12,551 nt of DNA from a virus. Lineage: Duplodnaviria; Heunggongvirae; Uroviricota; Caudoviricetes. Position numbers and translations under genes: made by a program. Of the stretch, positions 2,919 through 12,496 are shown piece by piece. Each line of letters begins with the position of its first letter. Positions within the stretch are counted from its first letter, which is position 1. The DNA is taken from IMG/VR virus record IMGVR_UViG_2703719355_000002, positions 1-12,551 of that record, one strand, 5' to 3'. The notes under the pieces are model-generated. The model saw only the letters and a list, made by a program, of their open reading frames with translations. It did not search any database and was not told the origin of the DNA.

Positions 2919-3445
2919 GCCGCCCTCCTGACGCCATGCCCGATTGCCATCAATGCCGCTTTGGATACGGTAGTAAACATCCGTCGAGGACTGATGAACG
3001 GTCGCCAAATCAGCAGCATGGAGCCTTTGCTGTTTCCCTTCTTCTCCAGCCCTGTCGATGGTTCGATAAAATTAATCCGTCCATCAGTGATGATGCGAAC
3101 TTCGTCGACACTCTCCAGAGCCTTGCTGAACCATCCGACTGACATATCCTCTGGCACAAGCATCACTACCGTCTGTCGCTGTTGTATGCACTGCTCAGCG
3201 GTTTTTTCCACCCACGGCCTGATATTGCTGTACGGTGGGTTATTCCAGATTGCACCGTGGCTTATCCACTCAGAATTGAGCGCGTCGTCGACCTCAGTTA
3301 GCCAGTGAGCGCACAGAGCGTTTTTGTCGCTCGCAGCTGAATCCAGCCAGAATCCAAACTCAATATCCAGTGCATCAAAAAGCCAAAGCGGCGTTTGCCA
3401 GCAGTCTCTAACTTCTTTTGGTGTTTCTGATTTATGCTTAATCAT
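2915..3445 (-). CDS. Phage DNA N6-adenine methyltransferase (phage Dam family)
   Basis: 176 aa with the NPPY catalytic motif ([10 protein letters not shown]) and the N-terminal [12 protein letters not shown]...FGF..DSAAS signature typical of phage Dam-type MTases in nin regions. GAGGG RBS; ATGA overlap with the HNH gene stop. Confidence 0.85.
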
Positions 3446-3969
3446 TCAACCCTCGCATATTGTCCGTGATATTTGTTGATAGCCTCACTGGCAACCAAAC
3501 CAGCAAGCTCAAGATCTTCATAGAACCCAAAATGCAACCGGCCAAAATCTGTGCGCACTTGAACGGCCCATTTATTTTTTTGCTTGTTCCATAAAACATT
3601 TTTTATTCCAGAACGGCTATTGCACTTAGTTTTCTGATTTCGGCTGTTTGCTATCCGGCTTGCCTCCCTAAGATTTTTTGGGGAATTGTCCAGCCTGTTT
3701 CCGTTAATATGGTCAATATTTTTCAATGGCATTCTTTTGTTGTGCAGCGCAAAAACAACTACGTGAACAAACATCTGAATGCCTGCAAAACACACCTGTC
3801 TATACCCAGATCCATTTATCGATGTTTTAATTTCATCTCCGGCCCGGTGGCTGTGGTTGGGGTGTTTTAGCGAGTCCTTTTTGTATCTGACTGTATCTCC
3901 GTCTAAATACAGATAATCCTCAATAAGCCGATACCTATCTGACGCTGGCGTATTTGATTTGATAGTCAT
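3442..3969 (-). CDS. HNH homing endonuclease (HNH plus AP2-like DNA-binding C-terminus), 175 aa from ATG 3969..3967
   Basis: His-Asn-His motif region HVVVFALHNKRMPLKNIDHINGNRLDNSPKNLREASRIANSRN; C-terminal KNVLWNKQKNKWAVQV...HFGFYEDLELA resembles AP2-domain tails of phage HNH endonucleases. ATGA overlap with the preceding HNH gene; GGGGAGA RBS. Confidence 0.8.
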   Translation of the reverse strand: MTIKSNTPASDRYRLIEDYLYLDGDTVRYKKDSLKHPNHSHRAGDEIKTSINGSGYRQVCFAGIQMFVHVVVFALHNKRMPLKNIDHINGNRLDNSPKNLREASRIANSRNQKTKCNSRSGIKNVLWNKQKNKWAVQVRTDFGRLHFGFYEDLELAGLVASEAINKYHGQYARVE

Positions 3970-4568
3970 GCAGCACTGTCTCCCCATCTCGCTTTCATTG
4001 TTTCATTTGCAAATCGCCAGAATCTTCCTTTGTGATATGAGCTTTCGCCATTACAGCAACGACTAATTGACGAACTATCAAATCCTTCTCTGACAGCATC
4101 CATAGCTGCTTCATAATAAACCTCCTCCCCAGTTTTCATGTCAGTAGAAATAACGGCTTTACTGGCAGGGTGATCACCACTAAATTTACCTAGCGATATA
4201 GGTATTCTTCCATTTTGTTTATATCCGTGCTTTGAGTTTTCAGAATGAGATACCCATTCAAGGTTTTCAGCCCTATTGTCATCTCTTTGCCCATTTTTGT
4301 GATTAACTACCAAGCCATCACAGAACCCTGTACAGAATGCTTTCGCAACTATCCTGTGGGCGCTGTATTTCTTACCGTATACCTTTATTTGAAGATATCC
4401 TGTCGACTTGCACTTGAATGGTTTTACGCTAGTGCCATTAATTATTTTCTTATATGGCCTCTGTCTGGTTGATGTTACTGTAATTTCCCTCGCAATAGAC
4501 CTGAAATTTCCTTTATTGCTAACCTGATAAAATGGAATTCCTTCGATATCTACCCAAACCTCAATCAT
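3966..4568 (-). CDS. HNH homing endonuclease (NUMOD4-like N-terminus plus HNH), 200 aa
   Basis: N-terminal EVWVDIEGIPFYQVSNKGNFRS (NUMOD4-like), HRIVAKAF and VNHKNGQRDDNRAENLEWVSHSEN (HNH motif). GGAGGAATT RBS; start overlaps the ninB stop. Confidence 0.8.
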   Translation of the reverse strand: MIEVWVDIEGIPFYQVSNKGNFRSIAREITVTSTRQRPYKKIINGTSVKPFKCKSTGYLQIKVYGKKYSAHRIVAKAFCTGFCDGLVVNHKNGQRDDNRAENLEWVSHSENSKHGYKQNGRIPISLGKFSGDHPASKAVISTDMKTGEEVYYEAAMDAVREGFDSSSISRCCNGESSYHKGRFWRFANETMKARWGDSAA

Positions 4569-5320: not shown

Positions 5321-7201
5321 TTAATACTCCGTCACGTTTTCCTGTCGCCACGCCTCGTCATATTCCGATTTCGGCATATTGGCGATGTAGCTATATGGCG
5401 ATCCTGATTCAAGTTGCAGGAACTGGTGCGATTGCTCGTCAAGGAACAACGGGACACCACCTTCCCAACCTTCGCCGTTACGTTGTTTTTCAAGCATCAA
5501 AACAGATGCCGGAGATGCCAGTAGCTGTTCGTCCTTCTCTGACATCTTTTCACCACTCTGAACTCTCTGTAACGCTCTCTCGCGAGCCTTGTTACGCCAG
5601 ATGATGAAAAGGTTGTCTGTCAGGTCTGTTATCGCTCCAGAGCCTTTTACGTCCATTTTCCCGGTTGGTTTTTCTTCGCTGTCTCCTTTTCGCGAGTGAG
5701 TAACGAGAATGACGTGGGAGTTTGTTTTGTTTTTGAAGTCGCAAATCGAGTCAACAAAAGCCTTCTGCCCGTTATAGTCATCGTCGCCTATGCCACATTT
5801 CATCAGGCTGTCGATGATGAATAACTGGATCCCGTATCGGCGGCGAGCGTAGTCGAATATTTCGATCAGCCTGTCGGCTTTCGCCGTTCCGGTCAGGCCA
5901 AACACCCAAAGTCTTTCGTCATAAAATTTAAATGCAGAGTCAATTTCCAGCACTGGCGGCATCTTGCAGCACGTCGCCTGACGGGTAAGGCGCTTAAGGA
6001 GAATACCAGGCTTCAGCTCAAGTGACGCGATGCACGTCTTCACTCCCTGACGCATTGCCTCAAGTGCCATATGCCCGACAACCTCCGTTTTTCCGTGACC
6101 GTTCACACCATTGACCAGCGTCAACTCTGCCTCACGGAACTGGAATTTATCTGCCAGAGATTCCCACGGTGGATTAAACAGATACTGCTGCTTGCCGTAG
6201 AAAGCGTTGATAGTGTCCTGGTAAAACTCTCGCGCACTGTAGAGTTCTTCAGGATCGAAGTAGGATGCCGTGCCGATGTACTGCCAGATTTCATCCTCGG
6301 TAACACCGTTCATCAGGCATTCGTTGATGTCTTTGTACGGCAGAGTAACAAGACGGCAACGATGTTCACCGAGTCGGCTTGCGATTTCCCTTGCGGCTTC
6401 ACGACCAACATCATCAACGTCCATCGAGATGAATATTTCCTCAAACCTGTCGAGGTTGTGGTACTCAAACTCAATCCACTGTTGCTTAGCGCCTTTCCCT
6501 CCACCAAACGGCACGGATAACGCCGAGATGCCGTATTGCGCATAGCTCATACAATCAATTTCGCCTTCGCAAAGTACAACCGCCCTCACGCCAGCGTCCA
6601 GAGCCTGCCATCCGAACAGACAAGGTTCGCAATCACCTTCTGCCATAATGACTTTCTTCCCGTCCGGGCGCTCAGTGCTGATTCGCTTGACCTGCAACAA
6701 CTCACCATCGCGTTTGTACGGAAGCACCAGTGCATCAAGTTCTCGTTCTCCATTCCACACCTTGCCGCTGACAACCTCGTAGCGCTTTACGACTTCTGGC
6801 GATATGCCACGCGATTGCAGGTACTCAAGATGGGATTCTGTTCTGGTAACGTAGCGGGCGATTTTCTTGCGGTCAGGTCTGGAGAATTTCTTCTCACGTT
6901 TGGCATCGAAATGGTGATCGTCATCCTTGATACCGAGAAATGCTTTCGCTTCCTGCATAGCCTGATGCAGGTTAATTCCACGACATGCCATCCACAAATC
7001 AAGCATGTCACCGCCGTCTCCCTCAGCGAAATCAGCCCATTTTTTCTTGCCGCTAAGGTTGACCTTAAGGCTGTTTCCCTTGTCACCGTTGACGTTACCG
7101 GCAACCCACTCATGCCCCTCTTTCTTGCCGTTTGGCAACAGGTGCGGAGCCACCCTGTCAACCTGCGCCCAAAGCAGGTCGCTGAGTTCACTTGGCCTCA
7201 T
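5321..7201 (-). CDS. Bifunctional DNA primase-helicase (Toprim primase domain plus DnaB/RecA-like helicase domain)
   Basis: 626 aa. Toprim signature: VVLCEGEIDCMSYAQYG ... ISMDVDDVGREAA. Helicase: Walker A GVNGHGKT, Walker B-like LFIIDSLMKC, ILVTHSRKG. GAGGGA RBS. Sits in the lambda P position downstream of the initiator. Confidence 0.9.
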   Translation of the reverse strand: MRPSELSDLLWAQVDRVAPHLLPNGKKEGHEWVAGNVNGDKGNSLKVNLSGKKKWADFAEGDGGDMLDLWMACRGINLHQAMQEAKAFLGIKDDDHHFDAKREKKFSRPDRKKIARYVTRTESHLEYLQSRGISPEVVKRYEVVSGKVWNGERELDALVLPYKRDGELLQVKRISTERPDGKKVIMAEGDCEPCLFGWQALDAGVRAVVLCEGEIDCMSYAQYGISALSVPFGGGKGAKQQWIEFEYHNLDRFEEIFISMDVDDVGREAAREIASRLGEHRCRLVTLPYKDINECLMNGVTEDEIWQYIGTASYFDPEELYSAREFYQDTINAFYGKQQYLFNPPWESLADKFQFREAELTLVNGVNGHGKTEVVGHMALEAMRQGVKTCIASLELKPGILLKRLTRQATCCKMPPVLEIDSAFKFYDERLWVFGLTGTAKADRLIEIFDYARRRYGIQLFIIDSLMKCGIGDDDYNGQKAFVDSICDFKNKTNSHVILVTHSRKGDSEEKPTGKMDVKGSGAITDLTDNLFIIWRNKARERALQRVQSGEKMSEKDEQLLASPASVLMLEKQRNGEGWEGGVPLFLDEQSHQFLQLESGSPYSYIANMPKSEYDEAWRQENVTEY

Positions 7202-8247: not shown

Positions 8248-8547
8248 TTAAAATTCCATTTGTATTTGATCAGAACGCTCGGTCTTGCACACCGGGCGTT
8301 TTTTCTTTGTGATTTCATCAAGCGCATACTTAAAAGCCCTGCTAATCGGACTGATGTCTGATGCCATTCCGAAAGCACACAAGACTGAAGCAATAAATCT
8401 CCAGTCCGTTCTGCTTATCTTCGATTCATGACAGCCAATCATCTTTGCCAGACCGCGCTGGGTAAGCGTTGACAGGTTGATGAGTAAATCTGTTTCTGCG
8501 CGATCAACGTCGCGCTGTGATAGTTTGCTGTAACTTGTTTGTTCCAT
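8248..8547 (-). CDS. cII: CII-like transcriptional activator (lysogeny establishment)
   Basis: 99 aa; HTH region plus a C-terminus KKKRPVCKTERSDQIQMEF that matches my recollection of lambda CII (...KKRPAATERSEQIQMEF). Position between cro and the replication genes. Confidence 0.85.
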   Translation of the reverse strand: MEQTSYSKLSQRDVDRAETDLLINLSTLTQRGLAKMIGCHESKISRTDWRFIASVLCAFGMASDISPISRAFKYALDEITKKKRPVCKTERSDQIQMEF

Positions 8548-8644: not shown

Positions 8645-8869
8645 TTATGCTGCCTGATTCGGTTTTGGAAACAGGTGTGGCAAATCGGGGCGAATTTCAT
8701 AAGCCTTGATCTGCCCTCCAGTGGCGTTAACGATGGCGGTAACTTTCTCTGGAGAGACCAACCCGCCTTTCAGCCATTTGTGTACTGCTGGCTGCGTTAC
8801 ACCACACTTGTCGGCAAGGCGCTTTTGGCTACCGACAATTTTCAAGGCTCGTTGAATTACTAAATTCAT
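8645..8869 (-). CDS. cro: Cro-like repressor (HTH), 74 aa from ATG 8869..8867
   Basis: HTH QKRLADKCGVTQPAVHKWLKG; divergent from cI across the operator region; AGAGGT RBS 6 nt upstream of the chosen ATG. The ORF-track start at 8890 has no RBS and would place the start inside the promoter. Confidence 0.8.
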   Translation of the reverse strand: MNLVIQRALKIVGSQKRLADKCGVTQPAVHKWLKGGLVSPEKVTAIVNATGGQIKAYEIRPDLPHLFPKPNQAA

Positions 8870-8902
8870 GAGCATACCTCTTGTGGTCATTACTTATAAC
8901 CA

Positions 8903-8931
8903 AAGATAACTCAAGTTATAAAAAATAGCAA
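8903..8931 (-). promoter_or_regulatory. PR-like promoter (-35 TTGCTA at 8931..8926, 17-bp spacer, -10 TATCTT at 8908..8903)
   Basis: Read on the minus strand; the -10 and spacer are overlapped by the operator at 8906..8919 and the -35 abuts the operator at 8931..8944. Predicted start about 25 nt upstream of the cro ATG. Confidence 0.5.
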
Positions 8932-8968
8932 TAACCTTTGTTATTTTACTTTGGATAACCGTAGTTAT
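8906..8968. promoter_or_regulatory. OR operator array: three 14-bp palindromes ATAAC-N4-GTTAT at 8906..8919, 8931..8944 and 8955..8968
   Basis: ATAACTCAAGTTAT, ATAACCTTTGTTAT, ATAACCGTAGTTAT; centres spaced 25 and 24 bp, in the cro-cI intergenic region. The same consensus recurs at the proposed OL (10710..10748). Confidence 0.65.
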
Positions 8969-8971
8969 AGA
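8966..8971 (+). promoter_or_regulatory. Candidate PRM -10 (TATAGA), which would make cI mRNA leaderless
   Basis: TATAGA lies 9 nt upstream of the cI ATG at 8981, inside/adjacent to the third operator; no good -35, as expected for an activated PRM. Weak by-eye call. Confidence 0.25.
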
Positions 8972-8980
8972 TTTGTGGGT

Positions 8981-9688
8981 ATGAAAACATTCGCAGAAAG
9001 ACTAAATGCAGCCATGAGCTCAGCAGGTGTGTCGCAATCACAGCTTGCTGACATGGTTGGAATATCTCAGCCAGCCATACAGAAGATGTCATCCGGTAAA
9101 ACAAACGGATCTCGCAAGATGGTTGAATTAGCCAATGCTTTAAAAGTACGCCCTGAATGGCTTAGCTCTGGTATTGGTGAAATGAGGGATGGTACACATG
9201 AAGAACCATCCAATGTCCGTGAATCATCTTTAAAAGCTGTGGTATGGGAAGATATTAAAAGAAACGATGACGAGTTTGTCGCGTTGCCTCTTCTTAACGT
9301 TTCGCTTTCAGCTGGAAGCGGTAGCTGCGAGCTAGAGGAATCATCAGAGTTCTCTTTGGTTTTCAGAAAGTACTATCTGAAAAAGATGGGGGTATCTGAA
9401 AGATCAGCCAAGCTAGTTAGGGTTGTAGGGCAAAGCATGGAACCAACGCTTCACGACGGAGATGTTGTTGGCGTTAACACACAAGATACCACAATCAGAG
9501 ATGGTAAAACCTACGCTATTTGCCAGTCTGATTTGTTACGAGTAAAAACATTAATCGCCACCCCAACATCGGTGATAATCAGATCAATAAATCGCGAAGA
9601 GTACCCAGATGAAGTAATGGATAGAGATGAATTTAATAAAACCGTAAGGATTATTGGCAGAGTATTCTGGTCGTCTCATAGTTGGTAA
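8981..9688 (+). CDS. cI: CI-type prophage repressor (N-terminal HTH, C-terminal LexA/S24 autopeptidase domain), 235 aa from ATG 8981
   Basis: HTH QSQLADMVGISQPAIQKMSSG; Ala-Gly cleavage site in SLSAGSG; catalytic Ser in GQSMEPT and Lys in LRVKTLI. The TTG start at 8951 proposed by the ORF track overlaps the third operator, so ATG 8981 is preferred. Confidence 0.9.
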   Translation: MKTFAERLNAAMSSAGVSQSQLADMVGISQPAIQKMSSGKTNGSRKMVELANALKVRPEWLSSGIGEMRDGTHEEPSNVRESSLKAVVWEDIKRNDDEFVALPLLNVSLSAGSGSCELEESSEFSLVFRKYYLKKMGVSERSAKLVRVVGQSMEPTLHDGDVVGVNTQDTTIRDGKTYAICQSDLLRVKTLIATPTSVIIRSINREEYPDEVMDRDEFNKTVRIIGRVFWSSHSW

Positions 9689-9723
9689 CCAGTGGCCTGA
9701 AGAGACGTTTGGATAACACGTAA

Positions 9724-10161
9724 ATGATTAAAGAACGTATTTCTTATATCATTCCGATTGCGATGGATGAAGGCAACCCAGTAACTCCGGTTCTTATCTA
9801 TGAAATGGATAAAGACTCCCATGAAGTGGATCTATCATTTGGCGCTTTTTTTATCGGCCTTAAGGCTACAAAAAAATATTCCATAGGCATTGAGGTTTTC
9901 AATGCTCAAGAAATACCGATACCAATTGACACAAAACTGTACTCCAACCATAAGTTTTTTACGGTAGCAGAAGCCAACGATGGAGAAACCATCGTATCAA
10001 CTTCTATGAGAATTAACTTCCCAAGGGTGAAAATTATCAAGCCTGGGATATTCGAAGTTAGAGCATCACTGGTTAATCCTGATAAAGGCGAAGTAATTGA
10101 TGTAAAAAGTTCGTTTTTTGACGTGAAGATAACAGGATCAGTTCGCGATGAGTTTAGATAA
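9724..10161 (+). CDS. Hypothetical protein, 145 aa, first gene of the cI-linked cargo cassette (rexA position)
   Basis: ORF begins 36 bp after the cI stop, same strand; AT-rich; no motif I recognise. Its 3' end overlaps the next ORF by 14 bp. Confidence 0.6.
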   Translation: MIKERISYIIPIAMDEGNPVTPVLIYEMDKDSHEVDLSFGAFFIGLKATKKYSIGIEVFNAQEIPIPIDTKLYSNHKFFTVAEANDGETIVSTSMRINFPRVKIIKPGIFEVRASLVNPDKGEVIDVKSSFFDVKITGSVRDEFR

Positions 10162-10519
10162 CAAGGTTGCTCAGCTTCGTCCAAATCAAAACATATCTCG
10201 CCCAATTGGACACTATTCAACTGATGATGCATACTCACGGCATGGTGGAGGAAACGGCGGAGGTAACATGCTTGAGGCTAGAGTTGCAAAGCTAGAGTCT
10301 GATGTTGAATACATCAAGCGCGATATCGCTGAGGTAAAGTCAGATATAAAATCTGTAGATTCTCGTCTGTCAGGTATTGAGACAAGCATTAACTCAGCAA
10401 AAACCACCATCAAGGCATCTGCGGTCGTTGTCAGTTTCGTGTTCGCATTTTGCGCCTACATTTTTGGAAGTTATGTTTCCAAAATCCTTGATGCCTTAAA
10501 CGGACTCGTTCTTAAGTAA
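10148..10519 (+). CDS. Hypothetical membrane-anchored coiled-coil protein, 123 aa (possibly 83 aa from Met41), second gene of the cassette (rexB position)
   Basis: Gly-rich N-terminus (SRHGGGNGGGN), heptad-like coiled coil (LEARVAKLESDVEYIKRDIAEVKSDIKSVDSRLSGIETSIN), single C-terminal TM helix (ASAVVVSFVFAFCAYIFGSYV). Architecture resembles XhlA-like small membrane proteins. The alternative start at 10268 has a GGAGGT RBS. Confidence 0.6.
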   Translation: MSLDNKVAQLRPNQNISRPIGHYSTDDAYSRHGGGNGGGNMLEARVAKLESDVEYIKRDIAEVKSDIKSVDSRLSGIETSINSAKTTIKASAVVVSFVFAFCAYIFGSYVSKILDALNGLVLK

Positions 10520-10524
10520 CACAC

Positions 10525-10553
10525 AACCCGGCCACCGAGCCGGGTTTTCTTTG
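10525..10553 (+). terminator. Rho-independent terminator ending the cI/cargo transcript
   Basis: AACCCGGC-caccga-GCCGGGTT (8-bp stem) followed by TTTTCTTT, 6 bp after the cassette stop codon. Confidence 0.75.
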
Positions 10554-10709
10554 CCTCACGTTCGCCCTCCCATATTTAATAGCCGCAAATGTGGTAAACC
10601 GCGAACCAACTCACCAGCAATACCCCCTCCAACTACAGACCAATCTGCAACATTTACAAAAATAAAATACCTTTGCTATCCATCACTTATAACTTATTTA
10701 CCACAAAAT

Positions 10710-10751
10710 ATAAACTAAGTTATTGACCATACCCATAACCTAAGTTATCTT
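10710..10751 (+). promoter_or_regulatory. OL/PL-like: operators ATAAACTAAGTTAT (10710..10723) and ATAACCTAAGTTAT (10735..10748), with -35 TTGACC (10723..10728) and -10 TATCTT (10746..10751)
   Basis: Same palindrome consensus and 25-bp spacing as OR; same -10 hexamer as PR; 17-bp spacer; rightward orientation toward nutL and the N-like ORF. Confidence 0.55.
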
Positions 10752-10796
10752 TAAGCCATCAGCAGGACGCAGGAAGCCAAACGGAACAGATTGGCA

Positions 10797-10835
10797 GGCT
10801 CTTTAACATTGATGGAATGGGGATGATTCGTCCCC
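10797..10835 (+). promoter_or_regulatory. nutL-like site: boxA GGCTCTTTAACATT (10797..10810) and boxB GGGGATGATTCGTCCCC (10819..10835)
   Basis: boxB is identical to the nutR copy and boxA is near-identical; both are oriented in the direction of early transcription, about 45 nt downstream of the predicted PL start. Confidence 0.6.
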
Positions 10836-10990
10836 ACCAAAGAGAGGTTGGCTTTGGGATTTGATGAATGCGCAGGTCGATGCGCTACCACTTAGCGGTG
10901 AGCACCTGCATTTTGGGCAGGATGGATAGCCGCAATAAGGGGATCGACACATGACATCAAATCACCAAAGTCAATCATCGGAGGTATCCA

Positions 10991-11197
10991 GTGAAAGCAA
11001 GAGGGATTCGCAAACTCGAACGCGCTCGTAAGCACAAAGAGGCGACAGCAAAACGTAAAAATATTGACCGTGTTTCAATGGTGGTTTCGCTAGCAGGAGC
11101 GAATAGGAAGAAGGTTGAATGTGGTTCGTGCTGCCTGCCAAACGTAGCTCTTTACGCGGCAGGCTACCGGAAATCAAAACAACTGACAGCGAGGTAA
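10991..11197 (+). CDS. Candidate N-like antitermination protein, 68 aa, GTG start, Arg/Lys-rich N-terminus
   Basis: First ORF downstream of PL/nutL; GAGGT RBS 5 nt before the GTG; N-terminus MKARGIRKLERARKHKEATAKRKN resembles arginine-rich motifs of N proteins. Shorter than lambda N (107 aa) and without recognisable sequence identity, so the call is positional. Confidence 0.45.
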   Translation: MKARGIRKLERARKHKEATAKRKNIDRVSMVVSLAGANRKKVECGSCCLPNVALYAAGYRKSKQLTAR

Positions 11198-12283: not shown

Positions 12284-12355
12284 GCGCGGCGTTACCGCAT
12301 ACCAATAACGCTTCACTCGAGGCGTTTTTCGTTATGTATAAATAAGGAGCACACC

Positions 12356-12496
12356 ATGCAATATGCCATTGCAGGGTGGCCTGTTGCTGGCTGCCCTTCC
12401 GAATCTTTACTTGAGCGAATCACACGTAAATTACGTGACGGATGGAAACGCCTTATCGACATACTTAATCAGCCAGGAGTTCCAAAAAATGGATAA
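12356..12496 (+). CDS. cIII: CIII (FtsH/HflB inhibitor that stabilises CII), 46 aa
   Basis: Hand-translated: MQYAIAGWPVAGCPSESLLERITRKLRDGWKRLIDILNQPGVPKNG, matching my recollection of lambda CIII residues 1-46 including the conserved amphipathic helix; AAGGAG RBS 7 nt upstream. Stops 8 codons short of lambda's 54 aa. Confidence 0.8.
   Translation: MQYAIAGWPVAGCPSESLLERITRKLRDGWKRLIDILNQPGVPKNG

Follow-up and report, generated by a model that had tools for sequence, protein, structure and literature searches.

The stretch of DNA considered here, virus record IMGVR_UViG_2703719355_000002 of IMG/VR (12,551 base pairs (bp); hereafter the window, meaning the whole stretch that was analysed), contains a lambdoid type of immunity region, and the subject of this analysis is a set of five 14-bp palindromes in that region, the proposed operators of its repressors CI and Cro. 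The genes cro (minus strand) and cI (plus strand) are divergent and lie 111 bp apart, with three operator sites of the right operator (OR) in between. Leftward from OR, the minus-strand order is cro, cII, a gene for a replication-initiator-like helix-turn-helix (HTH) protein and a primase-helicase gene. On the plus strand, cI is followed by two small open reading frames (ORFs), a terminator-like hairpin, the two sites of the left operator (OL2, then OL1), the left promoter (PL), a nutL-like element, an N-like ORF and cIII. Positions of these features, together with those of the right promoter (PR) and of the proposed promoter for repressor maintenance (PRM), are listed in Table 1.

When the whole window was scanned for ATAAC-N4-GTTAT, four exact matches were found (OR1, OR2, OR3 and OL1), compared with 0.01 expected by chance; none of 200 shuffles contained four or more. 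A scan allowing mismatches added a fifth site, OL2 (ATAAACTAAGTTAT), with one mismatch. Centre-to-centre spacing is 25 and 24 bp within OR and 25 bp within OL. All sites follow a 5+4+5 bp architecture whose symmetry axis falls between two base pairs, and conservation covers precisely the outer 5+5 columns. With a weight matrix made from the site variants of relatives, the window's own site sequences included, the five sites scored 18.6–21.6 bits and the next best position in the window 8.4 bits, and shuffle controls had a mean maximum of 9.6 bits and a 95th percentile of 14.0 bits. Because of the gap between 18.6 and 8.4 bits, we consider that the window has five strong sites and no others. 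An earlier note on this DNA, made from the letters alone, had described five palindromes of one consensus at about 25-bp spacing, three at OR and two at OL. The three OR sites proved to be exact, with the start of the third corrected to 8955, and the spacing (24–25 bp) and the two strong OL sites were recovered; however, only four of the five palindromes are exact, as OL2 has an imperfect left half (ATAAA), and further conserved site remnants lie upstream of OL2.

The same note had placed these sites over the -10 and -35 elements of the three promoters and had PR and PL sharing the -10 hexamer TATCTT, and both statements were borne out. At PR and at PL, the promoter-proximal operator ends in the TAT of the hexamer, and the distal operator has one base in common with the -35 hexamer, so that the operator/promoter geometry is identical at the two promoters. 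PL is conserved in relatives. At PRM, OR2 abuts the -35 hexamer and OR3 reaches the proposed -10 hexamer, TAGATT, which is the same as that of lambda. The TTTTACT block of the PRM -35 region is invariant in the alignment of relatives and in the 26 OR segments described below, and a TA(G/T/A)ATT hexamer is present 6–7 nucleotides (nt) before the cI ATG, without a Shine-Dalgarno sequence, in all relatives examined. The PRM start is predicted at 8980/8981, which coincides with the A of the cI ATG, and the cI mRNA would therefore be leaderless.

Table 1. Positions of operators, promoters, genes and RNA elements in the window (aa, amino acids).
Feature	Position	Strand	Description
cII homologue	8248..8547	-	Downstream of cro; Pfam Phage_CII, 1.2e-33
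cro	8645..8869	-	74 aa; helix TQPAVHKWLKG; Shine-Dalgarno AAGAGG 7 nt upstream of ATG at 8869
PR	8903..8931	-	-35 TTGCTA (8931..8926), 17-bp spacer, -10 TATCTT (8908..8903); predicted start near 8896; read from sequence
OR1	8906..8919		Exact match ATAACTCAAGTTAT; cro-proximal end overlaps PR -10 hexamer
OR2	8931..8944		Exact match ATAACCTTTGTTAT; 1 bp common with PR -35 hexamer; directly abuts PRM -35 hexamer
PRM (proposed)	8945..8973	+	-35 TTTACT (8945-8950), 17-bp spacer, -10 TAGATT (8968-8973); read from sequence
OR3	8955..8968		Exact match ATAACCGTAGTTAT; inside PRM spacer, reaching -10 hexamer; start 26 bp before cI ATG
cI	8981..9688	+	Repressor, 235 aa; HTH N-terminal domain, helix ISQPAIQKMSSG; S24 autopeptidase C-terminal domain
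Two overlapping accessory ORFs	9724-10161 and 10148-10519	+	rexAB position, between cI and terminator; PHROGs 5893 and 6136 (function unassigned)
Terminator-like hairpin	10525..10546	+	Closes cI operon (cI and two accessory ORFs), upstream of OL
OL2	10710..10723		ATAAACTAAGTTAT, 1 mismatch; final base is first base of PL -35 hexamer
PL	10723..10751	+	-35 TTGACC (10723-10728), 17-bp spacer, -10 TATCTT (10746-10751); predicted start near 10758; consensus scan
OL1	10735..10748		Exact match ATAACCTAAGTTAT; overlaps PL -10 hexamer; top weight-matrix score, 21.6 bits
nutL-like element	10798..10836	+	boxA-like GCTCTTTAACA (10798-10808), then hairpin (10818-10836) from folding
N-like antiterminator ORF	10991..11197	+	Short, 68 aa; GTG start; GGAGG at 10980-10984; Pfam N_peptide, 2e-16; PHROG 271
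cIII thermoregulator RNA	12343-12401	+	Rfam RF01804 Lambda_thermo, 88.5 bits; overlaps start of cIII-like ORF 12356-12496

The palindromes are widely conserved. Identity of the cro-OR-cI DNA to the window is 98% in Stx1a_10051, a phage converting to Shiga toxin (Stx) type 1a, and 94% in SH2026Stx1. It falls to 78% for PA28 and a dozen O157 Stx1a phages, to 76% for a Salmonella phage and to 71% for HK639. In all these phages the palindromes occupy equal positions, as they do in prophages of Enterobacter bugandensis and Kluyvera that turned up in a genome scan with the CI N-terminal domain. The GenBank record of HK639 has a “putative pR” and a “putative pL” at matching places, and operators are unannotated in the records of these phages. 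Together with 80 IMG/VR loci, these phage and prophage loci gave 26 distinct OR segments with the CI helix SQPAIQK. Invariant columns made up 28 of the 30 half-site columns, compared with 3 of 12 central and 15 of 78 other columns. All 10 half-site columns of OR1 were invariant, and half-site changes were confined to the right half of OR2, where GTTAT is replaced by ATTAT or GTTGT. Outer 5+5 positions that are fixed, with centres and spacers free to vary, are the signature of a dimeric helix-turn-helix site. At OL, both half-sites of OL1 were kept in 47 of 48 distinct segments (the remaining one has an ATTAT right half). The left half of OL2, ATAAA in the window, was ATAAA in 46 of the 48, ATAAG in one, ATGAA in one and ATAAC in none; this conserved ‘defect’ may tune affinity. 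An additional two-mismatch site, ATAACCAAAGATAA at 8896-8909, overlaps OR1 by 4 bp and covers the predicted PR start, and its minus-strand GTTAT yields a -10-like hexamer, TATAAG. It occurs in the E. coli lineages (window, SH2026Stx1 and PA28) and is absent from HK639, Enterobacter and Kluyvera.

Distant CI homologues extend this pattern. Sites of 14 bp are retained in them near positions -26, -50 and -75 relative to the cI start, and the site at -25/-26 was present in all relatives examined, including Salmonella phage BTP1 and Escherichia phage 4A7. Changes in the half-site accompany changes in the recognition helix. For example, with the CI helix QP(S/A)IW(K/R), Rahnella and Xenorhabdus have a mix of ATAAC and ATACC half-sites, and Mixta, with VPSIWK, has TTAAC and ATACC. 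In BTP1 and 4A7 (CI helix QPTIWR, Cro helix QPTVWR), the CI N-terminal domain is homologous (53–57% identity), 14-bp sites are found at -26 and -76, and the outer ATA...TAT is kept. Because of the QPTIWR helix and the changed inner half-site bases (ATACG/ATAGC), these two phages are assigned a different immunity specificity. Comparison with the operators of phages having homologous repressors, proposed in the earlier note as a check, was run on both scales: close relatives have the same sites, and distant ones have helix-linked changes of the half-site.

The two regulatory proteins were assigned to families. CI matched Pfam Peptidase_S24 (1.6e-17) and HTH_3 as well as PHROG 4, transcriptional repressor (3e-53). 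The nearest solved structure to its N-terminal domain is that of 434 repressor (1per/2or1/1r69; E 1e-7 to 7e-7 over residues 4-67 in a phmmer search of the PDB), and lambda repressor chains were not among the PDB matches to this domain. The CI helix SQPAIQK aligns to TQQSIEQ of 434, with the first Gln retained; according to work of Aggarwal and colleagues from 1988, the first Gln of the 434 recognition helix reportedly contacts A1 of the operator. The protein has Ala111-Gly112, Ser152 (in GQSM) and Lys189, and by analogy with LexA and lambda CI, Ala111-Gly112 is probably the cleavage site and Ser152/Lys189 probably the catalytic dyad. The CI of 933W reportedly cleaves at Leu-Gly instead (Koudelka and colleagues, 2004). 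HK639 (L001 2839-3528) has the CI N-terminal domain of the window and a C-terminal self-cleavage/oligomerisation domain of a different type; judged from the sequences, this pair is a clear case of repressor domain shuffling. The converse is seen in 933W and H-19B, which have the C-terminal CI domain in common and differ in their N-terminal domains.

Cro matched Pfam YdaS_toxin/P22_Cro/HTH_3 and PHROG 35. Its nearest solved structure is Xfaso 1 Cro (3bd1), followed by others of the lambda Cro lineage, and it is not 434-Cro-like. CI and Cro, two proteins of different folds, thus begin their recognition helices with the same QPA(I/V)(Q/H)K. According to the “evolutionary code” for Cro proteins, H1 Gln goes with A+2, H3 Ala with A+5 and H6 Lys with C+6, which predicts xAxxAC (PMC6649833). 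The Cro helix of the window, T(H0)QPAVHK, has Gln, Ala and Lys at the three coded places, and ATAAC taken as +2 to +6 fits the code at three of three positions. This fit argues independently for the palindromes as the cognate sites.

With regard to known switches, phage 434 is similar in several respects. The operators of 434 are 14-bp ACAA-N6-TTGT sites. Those of the window are likewise 14 bp with the axis between base pairs, both phages have three OR sites and homologous CI N-terminal domains, and the first Gln of the recognition helix is kept. In contrast, the outer half-site is ATAA here and ACAA in 434 (T instead of C at position 2), C at position 5 is also fixed in the window, and the helix is QPAIQK instead of QQSIEQ. 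In addition, Cro is of the lambda/Xfaso 1 lineage and not of the 434 type, and OL has two strong sites compared with three. Because of these differences in operator, helix, Cro and OL, the window phage is expected to be heteroimmune with 434. Neither ACAA...TTGT nor the QQSxxQ helix of 434 immunity proper was found here; the system is a relative of 434 and not 434 immunity itself.

The gene order and the operator/promoter overlaps match those of lambda, in which the cI mRNA is leaderless, as is predicted here. Lambda CI is also an S24 self-cleaving protein with Ala-Gly, and the Gln, Ala and Lys that enter the Cro code are the same in both Cro proteins. The lambda half-site ATCAC differs from ATAAC by one base, and there is one bp fewer between the halves in the window. 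However, lambda has 17-bp operators of the TATCACCGC type, compared with 14 bp (16 with flanks) and no central base pair here; the CI N-terminal domain of the window is 434-type and not lambda-type; its OL has two strong sites; and other accessory genes occupy the rexAB position. Neither the 17-bp TATCACCGC operators nor the lambda-type CI N-terminal domain that would mark lambda immunity was found. The earlier note had called the operator unlike that of lambda or 434. This is correct for the exact word, but the operator is of the same kind, with the length and symmetry of 434 sites and one base away from both ACAA and ATCAC.

In HK639, PA28, SH2026Stx1 and Stx1a_10051, the sites and their positions are those of the window, and so are the recognition helices of CI and Cro. 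Within the HK639/PA28/SH2026Stx1 group, the accessory genes between cI and PL vary from phage to phage. HK639 differs from the window in its CI C-terminal domain, in a near-complete third OL site and in put-type RNA antitermination in place of N. Phage 933W, a lambdoid phage of the same ecological group, also has three OR and two OL sites and a 235-aa CI, although its CI N- and C-terminal domains and its OR are not alike in detail to those of the window. The 933W operator is 15 bp long with a central base pair, G at position 2, AC at positions 4-5 and a CGAAC-type half-site (PMC3317979). Several other switches were considered and rejected: 933W immunity on account of this 15-bp CGAAC-type operator and the unlike OR and CI N-terminal domain, the H-19B switch for its different CI N-terminal domain and OR, the CP-933P PaaR2/YdaS system for its 18-bp GTTTAGTAA repeats, and BAA2326 for its lambda-like, weakly symmetric sites.

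The five palindromes very probably serve CI and Cro as operators in the lambda-style lysis/lysogeny switch of an E. coli lambdoid prophage, given their placement, conservation and covariation with the recognition helices and the families of the two proteins; binding itself is proposed by analogy. The earlier note had seen a textbook lambdoid switch in which the palindrome word defines the immunity type. Gene layout, promoter overlaps, conservation and the match to the recognition helices support both parts of this claim. A working scheme can be outlined in which binding, occupancy order, cooperativity, PRM activation and SOS induction are carried over from lambda and 434. In the lysogen, a CI dimer would sit on each palindrome, each QPAIQK helix reading one ATAAC half-site. 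Bound to OR1 and OR2, CI would block PR, and bound to OL1 and OL2 it would block PL. From OR2, which abuts the PRM -35 hexamer, it would stimulate PRM and the leaderless cI mRNA would be made; filling of OR3 would shut PRM off because OR3 lies inside the PRM spacer and reaches the -10 hexamer. Upon DNA damage, CI would cut itself, probably at Ala111-Gly112, and PR and PL would fire. Cro, with its helix QPAVHK, would bind the same sites and turn PRM down, and the N-like antiterminator would act at nutL. The ATAAC half-site would set the immunity type, common to HK639, PA28 and SH2026Stx1.

Several points weigh against this interpretation. PR matches 8 of 12 sigma-70 consensus positions and was not listed by the promoter consensus scan because this is below the scan's threshold of 9 of 12. 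The weight matrix scored site sequences that had gone into its making. A Fisher test on the OR column classes gave p 5e-13, which is an index only and not a true probability because the OR sequences are related and are not independent samples. The numbering of the Cro helix, on which the three-of-three fit depends, rests on our own alignment to lambda and Xfaso 1 Cro. A full-text literature search with the operator strings, and with ATAAC/GTTAT combined with operator or repressor, retrieved no paper on these operators and no binding, footprint or transcript data. Finally, cooperativity and OL-OR looping may not apply here, by comparison with 933W (PMC3317979).

This last point leads to an arrangement in which the operators are real and the wiring is 933W-like, with no OL3-OR3 loop repressing PRM, perhaps no pairwise cooperativity, and occupancy governed by intrinsic affinity. 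The window has only two strong OL sites, and 933W combines two OL sites with non-cooperative binding of its repressor to adjacent sites (PMC3317979). The OL2 left half, which is ATAAA in nearly all of the 48 distinct relatives (46/48) and ATAAC in 0/48, points the same way, as does the CI C-terminal domain of the window lineage, which differs from that of HK639, a phage that keeps a near-complete third OL site. However, the 24–25 bp spacing of adjacent sites is like that of lambda, where cooperativity operates, and OR2 is the sole OR site with half-site decay, as expected if it relies on cooperative help. Besides, the C-terminal domain of the window CI is unrelated in detail to that of 933W. 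We regard this wiring as conceivable but somewhat doubtful.

A second alternative concerns the number of OL sites. Upstream of OL2, TTTACAAAAATAAA (10653-10666) is invariant across lineages, G(C/T)TAT (10675-10679; GCTAT in the window) is conserved and follows a degenerate left half, and TTATAAC (10687-10693, with an ATAAC half-site at 10689-10693) is conserved in almost all lineages of the OL alignment and of the 48 OL segments. In HK639-type phages, the matching block is a near-complete site, ATAACTTATGTGAT, with one mismatch, 21 bp from OL2. These blocks (10653-10702) may represent operators that have decayed, a weak promoter upstream or the site of a host factor. If 10689-10693 and 10675-10679 acted as additional weak operators (a third and a fourth), or belonged to a second promoter upstream of PL under repressor control, OL would have more than two functional sites, and the conservation of TTATAAC, the ATAACTTATGTGAT site and the invariant TTTACAAAAATAAA farther upstream would be accounted for. 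In the window, however, both candidates have 3–4 mismatches and are absent from the 16 best weight-matrix hits (the lowest at 2.4 bits), and their spacing is 21–22 bp compared with 24–25 bp at the other sites. Conservation of the OL region, with a mean column identity of 82%, could also stem from recent common ancestry. Additional functional OL sites are therefore judged unlikely.

The idea that the palindromes are not CI/Cro sites at all, being either chance AT-rich repeats conserved as promoter elements or sites of another factor, could draw on the AT-rich region and on the parts of three sites that coincide with -10/-35 hexamers conserved for their own reasons, but it is hardly credible given that only 0.01 exact matches were expected, that half-site bases outside the promoter hexamers (such as the left halves of OR1 and OR3) are equally invariant, that in distant relatives the half-site shifts along with the recognition helices of CI and Cro, and that the Cro code predicts the half-site.

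The nutL-like element is kept in SH2026Stx1 and PA28; we take GCTCTTTAACA to be boxA-like from its resemblance to the rrn/lambdoid boxA consensus. In the N-like ORF, the GTG start lies 6 nt after GGAGG, the N-terminus is Arg/Lys-rich (KARGIRKLERARKHK) and the C-terminus resembles that of 933W N (…LPNVALYAAGYRKSKQLTAR). An in-frame stop (after …NKGIDT) is located just upstream, and the equivalent in the nearest RefSeq genome is annotated as a pseudogene ‘missing N-terminus’. This ORF may be either a functional short N or a remnant. The cIII thermoregulator was the sole match in the Rfam scan.

Of the two accessory ORFs that separate cI from the terminator, the second shows a weak XhlA-like coiled coil and a C-terminal hydrophobic segment, and a PADLOC search gave no credible defence-system match for the two ORFs between cI and PL. 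DNA ~77% identical to theirs occurs in Salmonella phages epsilon34, g341c and NM-3. Other cassettes, e.g. one with a DUF3024 protein, occupy this slot in prophages with the same cI/OR. The two ORFs are candidate lysogen-expressed accessory or exclusion genes. Farther to the left, two adjacent homing-endonuclease-like ORFs adjoin NinB, with equivalents in related genomes annotated as NUMOD4 domain-containing. The replication module consists of a single toprim/DnaB-like primase-helicase (626 aa) and the HTH initiator, and is not lambda O/P; the homing-endonuclease-like ORFs and the primase-helicase together have the coordinates 3442-4568 (-) and 5321-7201 (-). PA28 and SH2026Stx1, which have the same immunity, carry O/P or O/DnaB replication modules instead.

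The OR and cI 5' segment was detected in 163 of 5426 complete E. coli genomes (~3%), 112 of them at ≥95% identity and 50 at ~84% (PA28 type). None of the complete E. coli genomes searched contained the whole window. The best one, from a chicken isolate, covered 69% of it at 98.6% identity, with identical OR and cI and a different cI-PL cassette. Strain H19 (NZ_AP027165.1), the Stx1 reference and the source of H-19B, has this immunity region at 97.9% identity. Because the H-19B cI/OR sequence published as AF034975 belongs to another type, at least two lambdoid immunity types are present in H19. Literature searches on HK639 returned no description of its operators, and those on VT1-Sakai and immunity returned nothing for this type. 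Fattah and colleagues (Genes Genet Syst, 2000) reportedly compared the immunity regions of Stx phages, and their work may cover the PA28/Sakai-Stx1 type. In the literature searched, this immunity type has often been sequenced, is annotated only generically and is apparently uncharacterised at the bench; the design of the switch is textbook, and only the exact DNA word appears unstudied at the bench.

Tentatively, and with a good deal of reserve, the CI family can be viewed as a natural allelic series for the HTH recognition code. Across E. coli, Enterobacter, Kluyvera, Rahnella, Xenorhabdus, Mixta and Salmonella, the sites would stay at fixed positions (-26/-50/-75) with the outer ATA...TAT fixed, and half-site positions 4-5 would change with helix residues 3, 5 and 6, in parallel in a 434-type CI and a lambda-type Cro, whose folds are unrelated. 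As part of the same suggestion, the window type, with its two-site OL and weakened OL2, would represent a 933W-like, loop-free and easily induced switch of Stx1 phages.

Understanding of how such switches work is unchanged by these findings, which add one CI/Cro/operator triple to the data sets for DNA-recognition rules. The immunity type is carried by several Stx1-converting phages, and its assignment predicts superinfection immunity and cross-repression among prophages. Similarly, the operator word predicts which co-resident prophages share a repressor and allows the design of reporters and decoys. The use of this information is mainly practical, in the immunity typing of E. coli and Stx1 prophages.

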